Virus record (IMG/VR): IMGVR_UViG_2537561689_000015
Strand: one strand, 5' to 3'
DNA: 24,759 nucleotides
Origin: a virus
Taxonomy: Duplodnaviria; Heunggongvirae; Uroviricota; Caudoviricetes
How positions within the stretch are numbered: the stretch's first letter is position 1; the number at the start of each line of letters is the position of its first letter. The position numbers and the translations under genes are program-made. Shown here piece after piece: positions 11,323-24,202 of the stretch. The notes below the pieces were generated by a model. That model was not told where the DNA came from. It was given only the letters and a program-made list of their open reading frames with translations, and made no database searches.

Positions 11323-11533
11323 AAACGGTTTGCGGGGAAATCTTAGTTAAGTAGAATGACTGTGGGTGCTTGAGGCTATCTGTCTCAGGCATGAACACCA
11401 AAAGGCAGATAGAGAAAAGCCCCAGTTAACATTACGCGTCCTGCAAGACGCTTAACATTAATCTGAGGCTCAATCCATGCTGAACACATGTAGGTTAGCC
11501 TCTTACGTGCCGAAAGGCAAGGAGAAGCAGGCT

Positions 11534-11689
11534 ATGAAGCAGCAAAAGGCGATGTTAATCGCCCTTATCGTCATCTGTTTAACCGTCATAGTGACGGCAC
11601 TGGTAACGAGGAAAGACCTCTGCGAGGTACGAATCCGAACCGGCCAGACGGAGGTCGCTGTCTTCACAGCTTACGAACCTGAGGAGTAA
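11534..11689 (+). CDS. hok: Hok/Gef-family type I toxin (small membrane toxin)
   Basis: 51-aa product MKQQKAMLIALIVICLTVIVTALVTRKDLCEVRIRTGQTEVAVFTAYEPEE, which I recognise as Hok-family (closest in my memory to HokD/RelF). Strong AAGGAGAAG Shine-Dalgarno. An in-frame upstream extension from 11477 may be a Mok-like leader reading frame. Structured leader and a terminal hairpin as in hok mRNAs. Confidence 0.85.
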   Translation: MKQQKAMLIALIVICLTVIVTALVTRKDLCEVRIRTGQTEVAVFTAYEPEE

Positions 11690-12102: not shown

Positions 12103-12588
12103 ATGGCTGAGATTGTTGAAGGAGTGCATTACCTTACGGTTGATGATCTTGTTGAAATCAATCATTCCCTAATTGAATTACAGACGCCAGATGAGCCCGT
12201 TGGTGTTCTGAGTCCAGATAACTTAAGTTCTTCTCAGGCCCGTCCCAGCATGGTTCGATGGTATGAACAGACTAATGACATGTTTGTACTGGCATCGGTA
12301 TTGATTGAAAGTCTGATTCAGAATCATCCGTTTGCTAATGCGAACAAACGAACAGCTATGATGGCTGGTTACGTCTTCTTGTTGTTGAATGGCTATGAGT
12401 TAACAGCACCAGGCGATGAAATCGTGGAAATGGCAGAGGGACTGGCCTGCAAAACCTATACTCGAGAAGATCTCGAGAACTGGTTGTGTTATTGGTCTCG
12501 CGCGTATGACAGCCGGGAATTATGTAAAACAAGCGCAACTATTGTTTTGTATGAAACTATCAAGCTTAAAATAGAACAGCAAAACTAA
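12103..12588 (+). CDS. Doc/Fic-family toxin (Doc-type kinase motif)
   Basis: Motif HPFANANKRTAMMAG fits the Doc-type signature HxFx(D/N)(A/G)NKR. Start taken at the ATG at 12103 (track starts at a TTG at 12094). AT-rich gene. Confidence 0.8.
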   Translation: MAEIVEGVHYLTVDDLVEINHSLIELQTPDEPVGVLSPDNLSSSQARPSMVRWYEQTNDMFVLASVLIESLIQNHPFANANKRTAMMAGYVFLLLNGYELTAPGDEIVEMAEGLACKTYTREDLENWLCYWSRAYDSRELCKTSATIVLYETIKLKIEQQN

Positions 12589-14451: not shown

Positions 14452-14817
14452 ATGACTGAACGCATAGAATTTGTTTTGCCTTACCCGCCAACGGTGAACA
14501 CTTACTGGCGACGTCGTGGCAGCACATATTTTGTATCAAAAGCCGGTGAGCGTTATCGCCGTGATGTGGCGCTTATTGTTCGCCAGCAGCGGCTGAAATT
14601 AAACCTGTCCGGAAGGCTGGTGATAAAGATTATTGCAGAGCCACCGGATAAACGTCGTCGTGACCTGGACAATATCCTGAAAGCACCACTGGATGCGCTG
14701 ACGCATGCCGGACTTCTCATAGACGACGAGCAGTTTGATGAAATCAATATTGTGCGCGGTCAGCGCGTTCCTGGGGGGCGGCTGGGCGTGAAGATTTACA
14801 AAATTGAGAGTGAGTGA
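14452..14817 (+). CDS. rusA: RusA-type Holliday junction resolvase
   Basis: 121 aa. Start overlaps the upstream stop (ATGAATG). Sequence LPYPPTVNTYW...RRRDLDNILKAPLDAL is characteristic of the RusA family, and it sits in the nin-region position before Q. Confidence 0.9.
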   Translation: MTERIEFVLPYPPTVNTYWRRRGSTYFVSKAGERYRRDVALIVRQQRLKLNLSGRLVIKIIAEPPDKRRRDLDNILKAPLDALTHAGLLIDDEQFDEINIVRGQRVPGGRLGVKIYKIESE

Positions 14818-14825
14818 TCGTAAAT

Positions 14826-15368
14826 ATGATATACCCGGAAATTACAGGCAAAAGCGGCGAGCATTTACGTCTAAAAACGCTGGAAGCCGTCTGGATCCAG
14901 GGGAAATTACGGATGTGGGGGCGTTGGTCGTATATAGGTGGTGGCAAACCAGGAAATATGTTCAATCAGTTGCTGGCATCCAAAAAACTGACAAAAACCG
15001 CAATCAATGAAGCCCTGCGTAGAATCAGGGAGTCAGGGATTGATAAACCAGAGCTGGAAGCATTCTTGCGAGAGATGATCGCTGGCAGACAGAAGAGCTG
15101 GTTGTCTCACTGTACTGATGCAGAGGCGTTACGCATTGATGGGGTGATAAGTAAAGCGCTTGCACGTTATCCTGGATTGATTGATATCCTGCGGCAAAGG
15201 TACGAAGGGCGGGGGATGAGTAAACGCAAAATGGCTGAATTGTTGAATGAGGTTCACCCTGAGTGGTGCTATGCAACATGCCGCAATCGTATAGATATGT
15301 GGCTGAGAATAGCTGAGTTTATTCTGTATCCACTGATGCGAGATGCATTTTCTTTTACTGACGCTTAG
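14826..15368 (+). CDS. Late-gene antiterminator Q-like protein
   Basis: Start taken at the ATG at 14826 (track starts at a GTG at 14814 overlapping the rusA stop). Position directly upstream of a late promoter and terminator region and the lysis genes. Contains an MWGRW segment reminiscent of Q-family proteins. Assignment mainly by context. Confidence 0.7.
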   Translation: MIYPEITGKSGEHLRLKTLEAVWIQGKLRMWGRWSYIGGGKPGNMFNQLLASKKLTKTAINEALRRIRESGIDKPELEAFLREMIAGRQKSWLSHCTDAEALRIDGVISKALARYPGLIDILRQRYEGRGMSKRKMAELLNEVHPEWCYATCRNRIDMWLRIAEFILYPLMRDAFSFTDA

Positions 15369-15533
15369 AATCTGGAGGGCGTTTGTTGTTGCACGAAGAG
15401 GATTTTTGGCTGGTAGTAAGGTTTGTGCAGTTTTAGAAAAAAAGCTTGTATTTTTAGCCATAAACTGTTTCAATCCAGCTACGCTTCGCAAAGCTGTACC
15501 GCGAGGCGAATAGCAGACATGGACACCTGAAAG

Positions 15534-15557
15534 AACCCGCTTTATGCGGGTTTTTTT
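15534..15557 (+). terminator. Rho-independent terminator, tR'-like, downstream of the Q gene
   Basis: AACCCGCTTTATGCGGGTTTTTTT, about 165 bp after the Q stop, the classic place for the short late leader transcript ended at tR' in lambdoid phages. The pR' and qut site should lie within 15369-15530 but I could not place the hexamers confidently. Confidence 0.6.
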
Positions 15558-15680
15558 ATGCCTGAAAAACGGCACAGAACATTAAACGCGCTGGTAGTTG
15601 TGAATACTGGTCTTTCAGCTTGCTGGCTTTTTCGACAAGAGGTATTGGTATGTCACGTTAACCAGAAAAGGGAAAAAGGC

Positions 15681-15878
15681 ATGCTAAAACAGCAGGATAT
15701 GACCGAAACCGCCAGAGTGGTGTTTAATGAATTAAGCGTCACCGAACCGGCGACCGTCGGGGAAATTGCGCAGAATACTTACCTTTCACGCGAACGCTGC
15801 CAGTTAATACTGACTCAGCTTGTTATGGCGGGTCTGGCAGATTATCAGTTCGGTTGTTACAGACGCCTTCCGCAGTGA
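15681..15878 (+). CDS. Hypothetical small winged-helix-like protein (65 aa)
   Basis: Start taken at the internal ATG at 15681, preceded by AAAAGGGAAAAAGG (track starts at 15558, inside the terminator). HTH-like segment VGEIAQNTYLSRERCQLIL. Confidence 0.45.
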   Translation: MLKQQDMTETARVVFNELSVTEPATVGEIAQNTYLSRERCQLILTQLVMAGLADYQFGCYRRLPQ

Positions 15879-16028
15879 AGGCTTTTTAATTTGTGGTAAT
15901 GGGCGGCTGGTGGGTGTTAGCGGCACCTGCCAGCCATCTGCTCATGCGTTGGGGTCACAAGCAAACCTCAGGCCCATCTGCTTTGCGCAAAAGCGGTATG
16001 AGCCTATCAGAGAAGTGCTTATTGATCT

Positions 16029-17078
16029 ATGATTAATACTGTAAAAATATCCAGTTGTGAGTTAATCAACGCTGATTGCCTGGAGTTTATCCAGACCTTA
16101 CCGGAAAACTCTGTCGATCTGATAGTCACAGACCCGCCATACTTTAAAGTGAAGCCCGAGGGCTGGGATAACCAGTGGGAGGGCGACGATGATTACCTGA
16201 AATGGCTGGACCAGTGTCTGGCGCAGTTCTGGCGGGTACTGAAGCCTGCCGGAAGTCTTTACCTGTTCTGTGGTCATCGCCTGGCATCTGACACCGAAAT
16301 CATGATGCGTGAGCGCTTTAATGTGCTGAACCACATTATCTGGGCGAAGCCGTCCGGACGCTGGAACGGGTGCAATAAGGAAAGTCTGCGGGCGTATTTT
16401 CCGGCAACAGAGCGCATTCTGTTTGCAGAACATTATCAGGGACCGTATCGCCCGAAAGATGATGGCTATGTGGCACAGGGGCGCGAGCTAAAACAGCACG
16501 TCATGGCCCCGCTGATTTCTTACTTTCGTGATGCGCGTAAATCACTGGGAATAACGTCAAAACAGATAGCGGAAGCCACCGGAAAGAAAAACATGGCTTC
16601 GCACTGGTTTGGTACCAGTCAGTGGCAGTTACCGAACGAGGGTGATTACAACAAATTGCAGGCGTTGTTTGCGCGTGTTGCGGCAGAAAAACATCAGCGC
16701 GGGGAACTGGAAAAGCCACACCACCAGCTGGTCAGCACATACAGTGAGCTGAACCGGCAGTATACGGAACTGCTGAGTGAATATAAAAATTTGCGGCGGT
16801 ATTTCGGTGTGACGGCGCAGGTTCCGTACACCGATGTCTGGACGCATAAACCGGTGCAGTACTATCCAGGGAAACATCCGTGCGAAAAACCGGCAGAAAT
16901 GCTGCAGCAGATAATCAACGCGAGCAGTCGTCCGGGAGACCTGGTTGCAGATTTTTTTATGGGTTCAGGTTCAACGGTAAAAGCGGCGATGGCACTGGGG
17001 CGTTGTGCGATTGGTGTTGAGCTGGAGACCGGACGTTTTGAACAGACAGTCAGGGAAGTTCAGGATTTAATCGTTTGA
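16029..17078 (+). CDS. DNA methyltransferase (N6-adenine or N4-cytosine, beta-class motif order)
   Basis: Catalytic motif IV DPPY near the N-terminus and AdoMet-binding motif I FFMGSGST near the C-terminus. 349 aa. No adjacent restriction endonuclease, so it is probably an orphan phage methyltransferase. Confidence 0.9.
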   Translation: MINTVKISSCELINADCLEFIQTLPENSVDLIVTDPPYFKVKPEGWDNQWEGDDDYLKWLDQCLAQFWRVLKPAGSLYLFCGHRLASDTEIMMRERFNVLNHIIWAKPSGRWNGCNKESLRAYFPATERILFAEHYQGPYRPKDDGYVAQGRELKQHVMAPLISYFRDARKSLGITSKQIAEATGKKNMASHWFGTSQWQLPNEGDYNKLQALFARVAAEKHQRGELEKPHHQLVSTYSELNRQYTELLSEYKNLRRYFGVTAQVPYTDVWTHKPVQYYPGKHPCEKPAEMLQQIINASSRPGDLVADFFMGSGSTVKAAMALGRCAIGVELETGRFEQTVREVQDLIV

Positions 17079-17127
17079 AACGGATGAGATTGCAGAATTA
17101 ATTACGCACCATTATTATTCTGCTCCC

Positions 17128-17203
17128 GGCCCTTTAGCTCAGTGGTGAGAGCGAGCGACTCATAATCGCCAGGTCGCTGGTTCAAATCCAGCAAGGGCCA
17201 CCA
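17128..17203 (+). tRNA. tRNA with CAU anticodon (Ile2/lysidine-type or Met)
   Basis: Hand-folded cloverleaf: acceptor GGCCCTT/AAGGGCC, D-stem GCTC/GAGC, anticodon loop CTCATAA, T-loop TTCAAAT, 3' CCA encoded. Resembles the ileX/ileZ-type tRNA of E. coli. Confidence 0.85.
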
Positions 17204-17210
17204 TCACATA

Positions 17211-17287
17211 CCGCCATTAGCTCATCAGGATAGAGCGCCAGCCTTCGAAGCTGGTTGCGCGGGGTTCGAGTCCTCGATGGCGGTCCA
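17211..17287 (+). tRNA. tRNA-Arg (anticodon UCG)
   Basis: Hand-folded cloverleaf: acceptor CCGCCAT/ATGGCGG, anticodon stem CCAGC/GCTGG with loop CTTCGAA, T-loop TTCGAGT, CCA encoded. Confidence 0.8.
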
Positions 17288-17300
17288 TTATCTGTACCCT

Positions 17301-17377
17301 GCGTTGTTAGCTCAGCCGGACAGAGCAATTGCCTTCTAAGCAATCGGTCACTGGTTCGAATCCAGTACAACGCGCCA
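17301..17377 (+). tRNA. tRNA-Arg (anticodon UCU)
   Basis: Hand-folded cloverleaf: acceptor GCGTTGT/ACAACGC, anticodon stem ATTGC/GCAAT with loop CTTCTAA, T-loop TTCGAAT, CCA encoded. Confidence 0.8.
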
Positions 17378-17569
17378 CGCTTATTTTTCCAGGCTCGCTA
17401 CGGCGGGTCTTTTTCATATCCGCGTCACGTCAGGCGCACATCAAACAAACACAGAATCTTTCAGGGGGCGGGATAGTCAGTGTGACGTTCTCTGGGGGCC
17501 TGTCACTTCCGGGGATAGGTGTTTTTACGGGCTGCTGGTGGCCCTTTTTTATTTACAGGAGAAAGAAGT

Positions 17570-17962
17570 ATGTCTGAACCCTTATCCGGTTCCGGTACGG
17601 CTGCGGCGCTCGGCGGGGCGACGGTATTCGGGCTGTTTACCGGAATGGATTTCGGGATTGTGTTTGGCGCGTTCGCCGGGGCGTTATTTGTGGCAACGAT
17701 GCCACAGTCACTTTCAGTCTGGCGCGTGGTGGCACATTTTCTGGTGTCGTTTATTGTCGGCGTGCTGGGAGCGCGTGTGCTGTCAGCCTGGATTGCATCA
17801 AAAACAGGGTATGACGGTACATCAGCAGATGCGCTTTGCGCGGTGCTGGTCTCGGTGGTGTCGGTGAAGATTCTCTCGTTCATCCACCAGCAGGATATTG
17901 CATCGCTGGTGTCCGGTGTGTTCTCCCGCCTGCGGGGTGGAGGAGGCGGCAATGTTAAGTAA
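17570..17962 (+). CDS. Putative holin (multi-pass small membrane protein)
   Basis: Start taken at the ATG at 17570, preceded by AGGAGAAAG (track 17519). Several hydrophobic helices and a charged Gly-rich C-terminus. First gene of the lysis cassette, upstream of the endolysin. Confidence 0.65.
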   Translation: MSEPLSGSGTAAALGGATVFGLFTGMDFGIVFGAFAGALFVATMPQSLSVWRVVAHFLVSFIVGVLGARVLSAWIASKTGYDGTSADALCAVLVSVVSVKILSFIHQQDIASLVSGVFSRLRGGGGGNVK

Positions 17963-18227
17963 CCTTCCCGGATTGCTGAATGTGGCGTTATGCACGGTTA
18001 TCGTGCTGACGCTCTTTTTTTATCGTCGCCGTGATTCCAGACATAAACCGCTGGTGTCATGGCTGGCCTGGCTGCTGATGCTGCTGTATGCCTTTGCGCC
18101 CCTCAGCTATCTGTGTGGTCGCCCGTTAGCAACGGGCTGGCTGGAAGTGTTTTTTAATCTGCTGTTCTGCGTGCTGGTGATACGCGCACGCGGGAACGTC
18201 ACAAAAATCTTTCCATTGTTGAGGTGA
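17952..18227 (+). CDS. Second holin-like small membrane protein
   Basis: Start taken at the ATG at 17952, preceded by GGAGGAGG and overlapping the end of the first holin. Three hydrophobic segments. Lies between the holin and the endolysin. Confidence 0.55.
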   Translation: MLSNLPGLLNVALCTVIVLTLFFYRRRDSRHKPLVSWLAWLLMLLYAFAPLSYLCGRPLATGWLEVFFNLLFCVLVIRARGNVTKIFPLLR

Positions 18228-18229
18228 AT

Positions 18230-18607
18230 ATGCCGGGTAAATTCAGATTCAGCCGTCGCAGTGAAAAAAATCTGGAGGGTGTCAAACCTCAGCTGGTTGC
18301 TGTAGTTCGCCGTGCGCTGGAGCTGACGGAGGTTGATTTCGGTATTACGGAAGGCCTGCGCAGTAAGTATCGCCAGAAACAGCTGGTTGCGGAAGGGAAA
18401 AGCCAGACCATGAACAGCCGCCACCTGACCGGTGATGCGGTGGATGTTGTGGCCTACATCGGCAGCCAGGTGTCATGGGAGTGGCCTCTGTACGAGAAAA
18501 TCGCACAGGCATTTAAGCAGGCTGCCGCAGAGCTGGGGATCGCTATCGAATGGGGCGGGGACTGGAAAACGCTGAAAGACGGACCTCACTTTCAGCTGAA
18601 GCGATAA
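18230..18607 (+). CDS. Endolysin, peptidase M15-like (L-alanyl-D-glutamate peptidase type)
   Basis: Start taken at the ATG at 18230, preceded by GAGGTGA. Motif SRHLTGDAVDV and the overall size match zinc-peptidase M15 endolysins. Follows the holin genes. Confidence 0.8.
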   Translation: MPGKFRFSRRSEKNLEGVKPQLVAVVRRALELTEVDFGITEGLRSKYRQKQLVAEGKSQTMNSRHLTGDAVDVVAYIGSQVSWEWPLYEKIAQAFKQAAAELGIAIEWGGDWKTLKDGPHFQLKR

Positions 18608-20732: not shown

Positions 20733-21560
20733 ATGGGTTTTTCATCAGCCCGAAATTTGGGAAGGGACATATCGGCAGGATTTTCCCCACCACGTCGCAT
20801 GCCGATTTCGGAGGCTGTTAAAAAATTCATGCGTGTTCCCAAGGGGGCTGGTAACTCGGTGCCATGGGATCCTGAACTGACACCCTACATCATTGAGCCC
20901 ATGAACTGCCTGGCATCGCGTGAATACGATGCGGTGATTTTTGTTGGTCCTGCGCGAACAGGGAAGACCATTGGTCTGATCGATGGATGGATTGTCTATA
21001 CCATCGTTTGCGATCCTTCGGACATGCTCGTTGTGCAGATGACCGAAGATAAGGCCCGCGAGCATTCTAAAAAGCGCCTCGACAGAACGTTCAGAAGCAG
21101 TGCGGCGGTAAAGAAAAGAATGAGTCCACGTCGTAACGACAATAATGTCCATGATAAGACGTTCAGGGATGGCTCGTTCCTTAAAATTGGTTGGCCCTCG
21201 GTCAACATTATGTCGTCGTCGGATTACCGGTTTGTCGCCTTAACCGATTACGACCGTTTTCCGGAGAATATCGACAGCGAGGGTGATGGTTTCTCCCTGG
21301 CCTCAAAACGTACCACCACATTTATGTCCGCCGGGATGACTCTGGTGGAGAGCTCGCCGGGACGTGACATCTGCGACAGCAAATGGCGACGTAAGTCGCC
21401 TCATGAAGCGCCACCGACGACTGGTATTCTTTCCCTTTACAATCGTGGTGACCGCCGCCGCTGGTACTGGCCATGTCCGCACTGCGGTGAATATTTTCAG
21501 CCAGCCATGGATGCCATGACCGGCTACCGTAATGAACCGGATCCCTTTAAAGCCAGGTAA
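20733..21560 (+). pseudogene. Terminase large subunit, N-terminal fragment truncated by IS insertion
   Basis: ATG preceded by AGGAGG. P-loop-like FVGPARTGKT and a CPHCGE zinc motif. The frame ends at a TAA created by the first bases of the IS element (GTAAGCG). Confidence 0.8.
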
Positions 21561-21586: not shown

Positions 21587-23158
21587 TTACTGAGAGCTCA
21601 GATCAACTTTCCAGGGCAACAGATCGCGTACCCGGTTTGCCGGCCAGTCCTGGATATGTTCAATGACGTAACGCAGCCACTTTTCTGGCTCCACATTGTT
21701 CAGACGGCATGTGCCGATCAGCGAGTACAACACCGCCGCATGTTCACCACCGCTGTCGGAACCCGCGAACATCCAGTTTTTCCGGCCTACGGCCACTCCC
21801 CGTAAGGCGTTCTCTGCGATGTTGTTGTCGATTTCCACCCAGCCATTACTGCAGTACACGTTCAGTGCATCCCACTGTTTCAGCAGGTATGCGAACGCTT
21901 TTGCCGTATCTGAGTGACGCGACAGTGTTTTCATCTGTTGCTGTATCCAGTCATACAGTGACTGCATCAGTGGCGCGGCTCTGGCTTTTCTTGCCGCCAG
22001 ACGCTGTTCTGCTGAACAGCACCGGACCTCTGCCTCGATGGCATACAGTTCACCGATACGCTGCAGGGCTTCCGTGGTGATGTAGGTGGGCGCTCTTGCA
22101 TGCACATCGTGGATTTTTCTCCGGGCATGAGCCATACACGCGGCTTCCGTTATTCTGCCGGATTCGTATAACGCCCGGTAACCACCGTAAGCATCGGCCT
22201 GAAGCACACCGCTGTAACCGGCCAGGTGATTTTGTGGATGGATACCTTTCCGGTCCGGACTGTACGCGAACCAGACCGCCGGGGGCATCTGTGAACCGGC
22301 GTTACGGTCATCACGGACGTAGACCCACAGCCGGGCTGTCCGGGTTTTACCGCTGCCCGGCTCCTGGACCGGGACGGGGATATCATCAGCATGGACTTTA
22401 CCGGGCATCAGCACATACTGGCGCAGGACGTCATACAGCGGCTCCAGTAGTTCAGCAACGGCACCTGTCCAGCGCCCCAGTGTGGCACGGCTCAGCTCCA
22501 CACCCTGACGGCGGTATATCTCTGACTGGCGGTATAACGGCAGATGGTCTGCATATTTCCCGGTGACGACATGGGCCAGGAGCCCCGCTCCGGCATAACT
22601 GCGTGCAATGGGTTTTGAAGGTACTGGTGCCTGCACGATATGGTCGCACCGACAACAGGCCAGTTTCGGACGTTGTGTTTCGATAACCTTAAAGGCGCTG
22701 CTGATAAGCTCCAGTTGCTCTGACACATCACATCCCAGAGAACTGAGTTCACCACCACAGGCAGGACAGCATTCCTCTTCCGGCCGGATAACCCGGGTTT
22801 CACGGGAAAGTGAGGCCGGTAACGGTTTACGGGCTGAAGACTGGCGCAGGGCGGATGGCAGTACCGGGTCATATTGCTCACCCAGCGTTTCCGCCATTTC
22901 TTCCTGAAGTGCGCTGATTCGCTCCTGTGCTTCCTGTATCTGCCGTTCGGTTTTTGCACGAAGTTTTTCTGAGCTTTTACCGAACTGCATACGTTGCAGT
23001 TTCGCAACCAGCGCCTTCAGCCGGTTGATTTCGGAAGCATAAGCCGCCACCCGCTGTGAGAGCAGGCGGTTGTATTCAGCCATCTGGCGTATGGTGTCCT
23101 GTTGCGTCTGCAACAGTGCCCGCAGGCGGGCGTTCTCATGAGCAAGTGAGGTGTCCAT
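21587..23158 (-). CDS. tnpC: IS66-family transposase (TnpC/Orf3)
   Basis: 523 aa with an N-terminal coiled-coil or leucine-zipper region and a Cys-rich zinc motif (CPACGG...CCRC), the typical size and layout for IS66 transposases. Confidence 0.9.
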
Positions 23159-23177
23159 ATCCTCACTTTACAACGGG

Positions 23178-23525
23178 TTATATGCGGATTCCAGCGCGTT
23201 CCGTTCGTTTCGGGTGCTTCCAGTTGATACCTTCAAGAAGCATGGATAACTGAGCCGGAGTAAGGTGCACCTTGCCGTCACGGGTGACTGGCCAGACGAA
23301 GCGGCCCCGCTCCAGGCGTTTGGTGAAGAGGCACAGTCCGTCACTGTCAGCCCACAACACTTTTATCTGGTCACCCCGGCGTCCGCGGAAGATGAACAGG
23401 TGTCCGGAGAACGGGTCATCCTTCAGGACGTTCTGAACTTTTGATGCCAGGCCGTTAAAGCCATTTCGCATATCGGTGATACCTGCAACCAGCCAGATAC
23501 GCGAACCTGCAGGGAGAGATATCAT
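23178..23525 (-). CDS. tnpB: IS66-family accessory protein TnpB (Orf2)
   Basis: 115 aa, between the Orf1 and transposase genes. The sequence MISLPAGSRIWLVAGITDMRNGFNGL is characteristic of IS66 Orf2. Confidence 0.9.
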   Translation of the reverse strand: MISLPAGSRIWLVAGITDMRNGFNGLASKVQNVLKDDPFSGHLFIFRGRRGDQIKVLWADSDGLCLFTKRLERGRFVWPVTRDGKVHLTPAQLSMLLEGINWKHPKRTERAGIRI

Positions 23526-24202
23526 CAGTGGCTGCTCCCTTTTATTTCGCGGATAAGTGTCTGTAATAACGCCGGCGTCAGTTTACCTTTAAGCCTGAGA
23601 GTTCCGGCCGGCAGAACCAGCTCACAACACAGACTGTCGGACGGTGTATTTATCTGCTCTGGTTCCTGTGCGGGGGCCGGGATTTTATTATCCGGCTCCG
23701 GCGTTAACGTCACGGGAAGCAGTGCCGGCATATTTTTTCCGGAAGGCAGCAGGCCACCTTTCCGGTATTGATGGCGCCAGTTGAAGAGCAGGTTATCGTT
23801 GATTCCGTTTTCCCGGGCGATCTGCGCCACACAGGCTCCGGGCTGCAGTGACTGCTCCACTAAGGCGATTTTAAACTCATAAGGGAAGTTGGGCCGCCGG
23901 GGACGTTTTTTTACCACGGGGGCTTCGGATATAACGGTGCTTTCAGGACGTACGACTGGTACCGTGGAAAATTGTCCGTAAAGGCAGGCATCAAGTTCCT
24001 GCTCCGACATGCCTGCGGGCAAAGGCCACGAAAGGCCAGCTCTCCGAAAGCGCACGAACATACTACAAACAGTTGATTTTGGTACACCCAGGCGACGCCC
24101 GGCCACAACCCGGGGTAAATGTTCTTCAAAGTGAAGACGTAAAGCTTCAGTGATCCAGGTCCGGTGTTTCATACGATAGTGTCCATTAAAAATGATGGAC
24201 AT
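23525..24202 (-). CDS. tnpA: IS66-family accessory protein TnpA (Orf1); start uncertain
   Basis: Track ORF of 225 aa; the true start may be internal (for example the ATG at 24172). HTH-like region. Its stop overlaps the TnpB start. Confidence 0.75.
   Translation of the reverse strand: MSIIFNGHYRMKHRTWITEALRLHFEEHLPRVVAGRRLGVPKSTVCSMFVRFRRAGLSWPLPAGMSEQELDACLYGQFSTVPVVRPESTVISEAPVVKKRPRRPNFPYEFKIALVEQSLQPGACVAQIARENGINDNLLFNWRHQYRKGGLLPSGKNMPALLPVTLTPEPDNKIPAPAQEPEQINTPSDSLCCELVLPAGTLRLKGKLTPALLQTLIREIKGSSH

Follow-up and report, generated by a model that had tools for sequence, protein, structure and literature searches.

Late expression of stx in Shiga toxin (Stx) phages through Q antitermination from a late promoter has been described in published work. 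The layout of the region concerned, in which Q is followed by a methylase gene, the tRNA genes ileZ, argN and argO, stx and the lysis genes, is likewise already known, since numerous Stx phage genomes in the databases are annotated with it. The databases also contain non-toxigenic relatives, among them the PPompW phages, and the methyltransferase family has been characterised biochemically. Here we analyse the late region of a 24,759-nucleotide stretch of Caudoviricetes DNA (IMG/VR record IMGVR_UViG_2537561689_000015), the whole of which we call the window and to whose first letter positions refer. The corresponding prophage is already in RefSeq with its genes and tRNAs annotated. We are confident that the region is the late-operon control segment of a defective lambdoid prophage with an Stx-phage backbone, resident in enterotoxigenic Escherichia coli (ETEC), from which the cargo has most likely been deleted. 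The refinements that we add to the known layout are the assignment of the methyltransferase to the M.EcoGII family, the Ile2 identity of one tRNA, a candidate tRNA promoter, a codon mismatch, a probable deletion scar and the defective state of the prophage.

Alignment to the late regions of Stx phages revealed direct homology in two blocks. Relative to phiP27, an Stx2e phage and the best phage match, window positions 15546-17424 are 90% identical and positions 17520-18300 are 92% identical. The left-hand block is present in 293 phage records, mostly of Stx2 phages, with identities of 88% in Stx2a_WGPS2, 89% in 1720a-02 and 88-91% across Stx phages. Between the two blocks phiP27 has 1649 bp containing stxA2e, stxB2e and one reverse open reading frame (ORF), where the window has 95 bp (17425-17519). 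The start of stxA lies 90-91 nt past the tRNA with anticodon UCU in phiP27, Stx2a_WGPS2 and an Stx2k phage (phiSTEC1575-Stx2k), which bears out the proposal, made in a preliminary description of this stretch, that the window contains the slot used for stxAB. That description had also placed a Q-like gene, a tR'-like terminator, a small winged-helix ORF, a methyltransferase, three tRNAs and a holin here, and all of them lie where it put them. The features discussed below, from the Q-like gene to the endolysin, are on the plus strand.

A 3.9-kb stretch around the region is 100% identical in several human ETEC chromosomes, including those of ETEC-2265, 602354 and 504237. The whole window is matched at 24755 of 24759 positions in ETEC-2265, from base 1249580, where it forms a lambdoid prophage whose insertion site adjoins potC. 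Along the prophage the genes follow one another as integrase, excisionase, exonuclease, dicB, repressor/cro, the replication genes, hokD, doc, DUF968, RusA and DUF1133, after which come the late control region, the lysis genes and the head and tail genes. ISCro1, of the IS66 family, interrupts the large terminase gene; its transposase, tnpB and tnpA genes lie at approximately 21587-24202, with terminase fragments at 20733-21542 and from 24259 onward. Given this split, the prophage is defective and incapable of DNA packaging, and the late machinery probably no longer serves phage production in the ETEC host. The loss of packaging tempers the functional account given below, as the function described may be historical rather than current.

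The late control segment begins with a Q-like late antiterminator gene of the DUF1133 family, which spans 14826-15368 with the start chosen by PGAP and 14814-15368 as the longest ORF, from a GTG codon. This ORF matches Pfam DUF1133 (E value 2e-101) and, above the Pfam cut-off of 26 bits, Phage_antitermQ (27.8 bits). It belongs to PHROG 753, ‘anti-termination protein Q-like’, and its gene sits after DUF968-RusA, the same position as Q in lambdoid phages. Its earlier reading as a Q-like gene is thereby upheld, as is that of the tR'-like intrinsic terminator at approximately 15528-15558. The latter is a 13-bp hairpin with a G+C-rich core (AACCCGC/GCGGGTT), whose 3' arm takes in the run of T, and folding gives a centroid energy of -18.2 kcal/mol (z -3.75 relative to shuffles). 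A pattern scan of 14700-18300 counted 10 terminator-like sites, whereas shuffled sequence would be expected to give 3.9 +/- 2.1; the tR' hairpin was not among them, and was read from the sequence and then confirmed by folding. The same AAACCCGC...GCGGGTTTTTT hairpin is found in phiP27, 1720a-02 and Stx2a_WGPS2 behind different leaders, and homology to Stx phages starts by BLAST at 15546, which is in the 3' arm. Thus, tR' is a mosaic joint, Q-specific to its left and shared to its right. Sub-threshold Rfam matches to leader and small RNA families at 15436-15561, including AgrB (27.1 bits, with a threshold of 40) and isrK (21.6 bits, with a threshold of 50), align mainly through the terminator hairpin and were judged to be due to chance.

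Between the Q-like gene and tR' we read a weak candidate for the late promoter pR', TTGTAT-17 nt-TTCAAT, at 15446-15474. From about 15445 as far as the terminator, the window prophage and the H10407 prophage share a conserved block, with an indel just upstream. Two observations count against this part of the account. A consensus scan of 14700-18300 gave no plus-strand promoter, and no convincing late promoter or Q-binding site was found there; moreover, the -10 element of the candidate does not have the conserved A at its second position. A stretch of the LT-IIb enterotoxin phage SerU-LTIIb (locus L005, 2725-2799) matches window positions 15437-15511, which cover the candidate promoter block, at 76%. 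We infer that the Q-like antiterminator, which is distantly similar to phage 21 Q, would load on RNA polymerase at a late promoter just past its own gene. Without Q, in the lysogen, transcripts from this promoter would go no further than tR'. Upon induction, RNA polymerase made resistant to termination by the Q-like protein would read through tR' and the later hairpins or terminators behind the small ORF, behind the tRNAs and ahead of the holin. The genes expressed in this way would be those for the winged-helix protein and the methyltransferase, along with the lysis genes.

Three tRNA genes follow the methyltransferase, each found both by ARAGORN and by Rfam RF00005 at scores that place the earlier calls well above the covariance-model cut-off of 29 bits. 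They are a tRNA-Ile2 of the ileZ type with anticodon CAU, which would read AUA (17128-17203; 72.5 bits), a tRNA-Arg of the argN type with anticodon UCG (17211-17287; 56 bits), and a tRNA-Arg of the argO type with anticodon UCU (17301-17377; 70.1 bits). Relative to the annotated genes of Stx2a_WGPS2, the UCG tRNA is identical to argN at 73 of 77 positions and the UCU tRNA is identical to argO throughout. The codons decoded by the cluster, AUA (ileZ), CGA/CGG (argN) and AGA/AGG (argO), are rare in E. coli, as the preliminary description had said of those read by the two Arg tRNAs. Nine nucleotides upstream of ileZ lies a candidate sigma-70 promoter, TTGCAG-17 nt-TATTAT (17090-17118). It is conserved in phiP27, 1720a-02, Stx2a_WGPS2, TW10590 and H10407, and the Stx2k phage retains its -10 element despite a different upstream gene. 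The promoter call combines manual reading of the sequence, this conservation and a transcription start, mapped in published work, that drives the homologous tRNAs of the Sakai Stx2a phage (PMC7547250). The cluster is closed by a terminator found in the pattern scan (17391-17415; AGGCTCGCTACGGCGGGTCT then TTTTT), which is kept in 6 of 6 phages and prophages aligned, and homology to Stx phages stops just past it, at 17424-17437. With a conserved promoter-like site at one end and a terminator after argO at the other, the cluster has the appearance of a unit complete in itself, from promoter to terminator, and we infer that ileZ, argN and argO may be expressed from a promoter of their own. In the sister prophage of H10407 (locus L007, 2404-2500), argN is heavily substituted and its tRNA annotation lost, and ileZ and argO are intact.

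Codon counts bear on what the tRNAs are for. Per 1000 codons, stxA contains 47-50 ATA and 19-25 AGA, the structural genes of the window prophage 2.2 ATA and 2.7 AGA, and its early genes 10.3 ATA and 8.1 AGA. The tRNAs therefore fit a toxin cargo and, though less closely, the early genes far better than the prophage's own late genes. Alternatively, the tRNAs may be purely Q-dependent late genes that serve the phage's own late proteins, and not an independent unit tuned to a cargo. Their location within the late operon, downstream of tR', is what this would predict, and phage tRNAs are commonly explained as offsetting differences in codon usage from the host (PMC7946995). Against it stand the scarcity of ATA and AGA in the structural genes, the fact that the gene rich in these codons is stxA, and the conserved promoter-like site before ileZ together with the mapped start of the homologous Stx2a prophage tRNAs. 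We consider this alternative unlikely, if still deserving of serious attention, and favour the independent unit. A literature search combining ileZ, argN, argO and Shiga toxin found no paper in the collection searched.

The slot that follows the tRNAs is where the window departs from Stx phages. The holin starts with the ATG at 17570, and the 192 bp that separate it from the last tRNA, in line with the approximately 190 bp reported before, contain no credible ORF and hence no stxAB. The earlier statement that nothing is inserted here is right as regards genes and toxin-like ORFs, but 17425-17517 is the leftover leader of a cassette comprising a TerB-family gene and a DUF3927 gene, identified by homology at the position of stxAB in Stx phages. 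In both ETEC TW10590 and phage Evi, the homologous leader is followed at once by the ribosome-binding site and start codon belonging to a TerB-family gene. The TerB-family proteins of these two are only 42% identical and their lysis modules are unrelated; phiP27 and Stx2a_WGPS2 lack the leader. TW10590 has a 643-bp insert exactly between the equivalents of window positions 17513 and 17518, which codes for two proteins, one of the TerB family (Pfam TerB, 32.7 bits) and one of DUF3927. A 3' end of DUF3927 and a terminator before the holin are common to TW10590 and phiP27 and are missing in the window.

The leader homology and the missing DUF3927 end point to loss of the cassette by a deletion of about 640 bp between short similar sequences, and the window copy is most likely a deletion derivative, if the direction of the indel has been read correctly from these alignments. 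The cargo position holds stxAB in Stx phages, the TerB-family and DUF3927 pair in the closest ETEC relatives, and only the leader here. Among 5426 complete E. coli genomes, the contiguous form occurs in 19 records, the full cassette in 29 and a shorter version in at least 12, ETEC H10407 being one of those with the shorter version. One measurement sits uneasily with a deletion: the leader is approximately 85-88% identical to that of TW10590, against 98.7% for the flanks, which excludes a recent deletion from that exact allele. The slot might instead never have been occupied: the segment of about 90 bp would be ordinary backbone, and an ancestral site that was empty, as here, would later have received the TerB/DUF3927 and stx cassettes. 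The greater divergence of the leader would suit such a history, as would the fact that 19 of the 19 contiguous-form records seem to share one junction, at 97-100% identity, as expected of a stable, transmitted state. Yet the leader leads directly into a TerB-family start codon in two very different phages, TW10590 and Evi, and the block of the DUF3927 3' end and terminator accompanies stx2e and TerB cargo alike but is missing here. In addition, a separate deletion in H10407, which removed the leader together with the 5' half of TerB, proves the slot to be subject to deletion. An originally empty slot is thus improbable in our view, and we retain deletion as the explanation.

Related arrangements occur elsewhere. 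A record named Actinobacillus phage vB_Apl-pPE4 (PP818812.1, 17432-18393) has 90% DNA identity to the E. coli tRNA-to-holin region over a match that spans a tellurite-resistance (TerB-like) gene, which is unexpectedly close for a Pasteurellaceae phage. In the non-Stx prophage PPompW_132418 (locus L013, 3335-5117), the same leader fragment comes after a set of tRNAs for Met, Lys and Arg. Between this fragment and the terminase genes sits ISEc20, an element of the IS110 family, and the interval contains no annotated lysis genes.

The gene at 16029-17078 encodes a 349-residue orphan DNA methyltransferase of the beta class, predicted to act on N6 of adenine. It matches Pfam N6_N4_Mtase (E value 2e-44), and its motifs follow the beta-class order, with DPPY at residues 35-38 (N-terminal) and FMGSG (FxGxG) at residues 310-314 (C-terminal). 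No nuclease gene adjoins it, the neighbours being the winged-helix ORF and the tRNAs, and PADLOC returned methyltransferase models only, with no defence-system match for Q, the winged-helix ORF, TerB or DUF3927. The earlier description of an orphan beta-class enzyme is therefore sustained. M.EcoGII is a 349-residue enzyme of an E. coli O104:H4 prophage that is silent in the lysogen, modifies adenine in every dinucleotide context (approximately 85% of all A) and is deleterious when expressed constitutively; phage 1720a-02 was named in the same study as carrying a very similar enzyme (PMC5778455). The ancestral variants of the M.EcoGII clade were all active in DNA and RNA methylation, and on RNA the action of M.EcoGII, Anc291 and SUPREM was largely non-site-specific (PMC11551740).

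The window enzyme is identical to M.EcoGII at 317 of 350 positions (approximately 91%), and is 85% identical to the active reconstructed ancestor Anc291 and 90% identical to the enzyme of 1720a-02. On the basis of the identities to M.EcoGII and Anc291 and the published activity of the clade, we assign it to the M.EcoGII family, and it most likely methylates adenine non-specifically. This reading has two weak points. The M.EcoGII sequence was machine-read from the text of the SUPREM supplement and has visible errors, so the identity is approximate and a lower bound; and about 17 of the roughly 27 real differences lie within residues 140-250, the linker and target-recognition region. Motif specificity is usual among beta-class N6-adenine methyltransferases, and this concentration of substitutions would also be consistent with a sequence-specific orphan enzyme, Dam-like or recognising another motif. 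We think this quite improbable in view of the full-length identities, the equal length, the DNA and RNA methylation by every ancestral variant of the clade and the largely non-site-specific action of the two that were tried on RNA.

The genomic setting of the M.EcoGII-family enzyme suggests how it might be used. Its gene sits behind tR' and behind a second terminator-like hairpin found in the pattern scan (15865-15890; GCCTTCCGCAGTGAAGGC then TTTTTAATTT), which covers the stop codon of the small ORF. This position fits an enzyme kept silent until late lytic growth, the terminators upstream avoiding harmful expression during lysogeny. Once made, the methyltransferase would most likely modify adenines of the progeny DNA with little or no sequence specificity, and such methylation would make restriction by Type I, II and III systems of the next host less effective. 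Evasion of restriction, as suggested in the preliminary description, is thus a plausible role for the predicted enzyme, and the idea is strengthened by its high identity to a non-specific methylase. At the methyltransferase position, the Stx2k phage (locus L006, 1965-2678) encodes a 237-residue AraC-type regulator (Pfam HTH_AraC), and it keeps the winged-helix ORF and three tRNAs. Phage SerU-LTIIb (locus L005, 1-6368) shares the methyltransferase (88%) and the holin (85%) with the window. Its tRNAs differ (Arg, Gly, Thr, Gly), a holin fragment is duplicated, and its toxin genes sit after the endolysin, outside the stx position.

The tRNA with anticodon CAU is, by its sequence, of the AUA-reading Ile2 type, with modification of C34 to lysidine and charging by isoleucine predicted indirectly from its match to ileX of K-12. 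ARAGORN labels it tRNA-Met from the anticodon alone and some phage records annotate its homologue in the same way, but a methionine tRNA is very improbable given that it is identical to the annotated ileZ of Stx2a_WGPS2, matches ileX of K-12 at 68 of 76 positions, differs from the K-12 elongator Met tRNAs metT/metU throughout both anticodon-stem arms and in most of the acceptor and T stems, and is labelled tRNA-Ile by PGAP.

Upstream of the methyltransferase, an ORF at 15681-15878 encodes a protein of 65 residues. AlphaFold2, run on an alignment of 24 sequences, gave a model with a predicted local distance difference test score (pLDDT) of 91.6, comprising three helices followed by a beta hairpin. 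This supersedes a single-sequence run that was unusable (pLDDT 53). Foldseek placed the model closest to winged-helix domains of MarR, IclR and O-methyltransferase proteins (template modelling scores 0.7-0.8), and we therefore predict, in agreement with the earlier proposal, that the protein has a winged-helix fold. Weak hits to winged-helix families (DprA_WH/TrmB) were obtained in 23 of 24 homologues, which among the matches listed are all at least 81% identical and so of low diversity. The name TrmB (PF01978), given to homologues in RefSeq, was not adopted for the window copy, which scores 18 bits, below the gathering threshold of 25.6. The evidence supports similarity to winged-helix proteins at the level of the clan only. 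The ORF corresponds to PHROG 331, of unknown function, and a sequence search of the PDB gave no meaningful match for it.

We also considered whether the promoter-tRNA-terminator unit is still expressed and has been retained by the host, raising the translation of AUA- and AGA-rich ETEC genes, and whether the winged-helix protein regulates or senses the methyltransferase. If so, the ileZ-argN-argO unit would be a domesticated tRNA island in an otherwise dead prophage, serving horizontally acquired ETEC genes. Strict coupling of the two protein genes was rejected, as the winged-helix ORF of the Stx2k phage is followed by the AraC-type regulator. The occurrence of the ORF without the methyltransferase in that phage weakens the regulatory part of the proposal, which as a whole we regard as speculative and doubtful.

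The lysis cassette (17570-18607) comprises a holin (17570-17962; Phage_holin_8), a second holin (17952-18227; Phage_holin_3_7) and an M15 endolysin (18230-18607; Peptidase_M15_4), all assigned by Pfam. Its genes have 92% DNA identity to those of phiP27. Directly before the ribosome-binding site of the first holin, the pattern scan found a terminator-like hairpin (17529-17550; GGGCTGCTGGTGGCCC then TTTTTTATTT) that is conserved in TW10590, H10407 and phiP27. Outside the late region, the window encodes a hok/sok type I toxin-antitoxin pair (11364-11689), in which the sok antitoxin RNA (11364-11539; Rfam 118.9 bits) overlaps the start of the annotated hokD (11534-11689). A second addiction-type module, of the Doc family, is represented by a death-on-curing (Doc) family toxin gene in the early-right region (12103-12588).

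Taken together, these results show that the late-gene platform used in other E. coli to deliver Stx2e, Stx2a and Stx2k is also present in ETEC strains, and that the cargo position of this platform can be filled, partly deleted or emptied. A methylase that is likely to act on adenine without specificity is relevant to the methylomes of induced ETEC cultures and to the mining of M.EcoGII-type enzymes. Beyond annotation, the finding otherwise matters little.

Several known systems are close to parts of the region. The Q-like protein shares the genome position of phage 21 Q, and its two ends show a weak collinear match to the structures of that Q (PDB 6JNX and 6P18). This match has an E value of only 0.008, the family of the window protein is Pfam DUF1133, and neither a late promoter nor a Q-binding element was identified. 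The methyltransferase resembles M.EcoGII in that both are prophage-borne orphan enzymes of the same length and motif order, and the window gene is placed where silence in the lysogen would be expected; it is set apart by approximately 27 substitutions, most of which affect the linker and target-recognition region. With the Stx phages phiP27, Stx2a_WGPS2 (a 933W-type Stx2a phage) and 1720a-02, the window shares the tR' hairpin, winged-helix ORF, methyltransferase and tRNAs at 88-91% identity, and with phiP27 and the Stx2k phage a lysis cassette at approximately 92%. Unlike these phages, it lacks stxAB and has the leader of the TerB cassette alone in the cargo position, and its DUF1133-type Q gene and the leader upstream of tR' differ from theirs. 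Individually, phiP27 has two tRNAs where the window has three, and the Stx2k phage has the AraC-type regulator instead of the methyltransferase. The closest relatives are the prophages of ETEC H10407, TW10590, B7A and others, in which the winged-helix protein, methyltransferase, holins and endolysin are identical or nearly so, with H10407 and ETEC-2265 sharing one accession for the methyltransferase protein. These differ from the window between the tRNAs and the holin, where TW10590 has a full TerB-family gene with DUF3927, and H10407, whose argN has decayed, has a 5'-truncated TerB-family gene with DUF3927.

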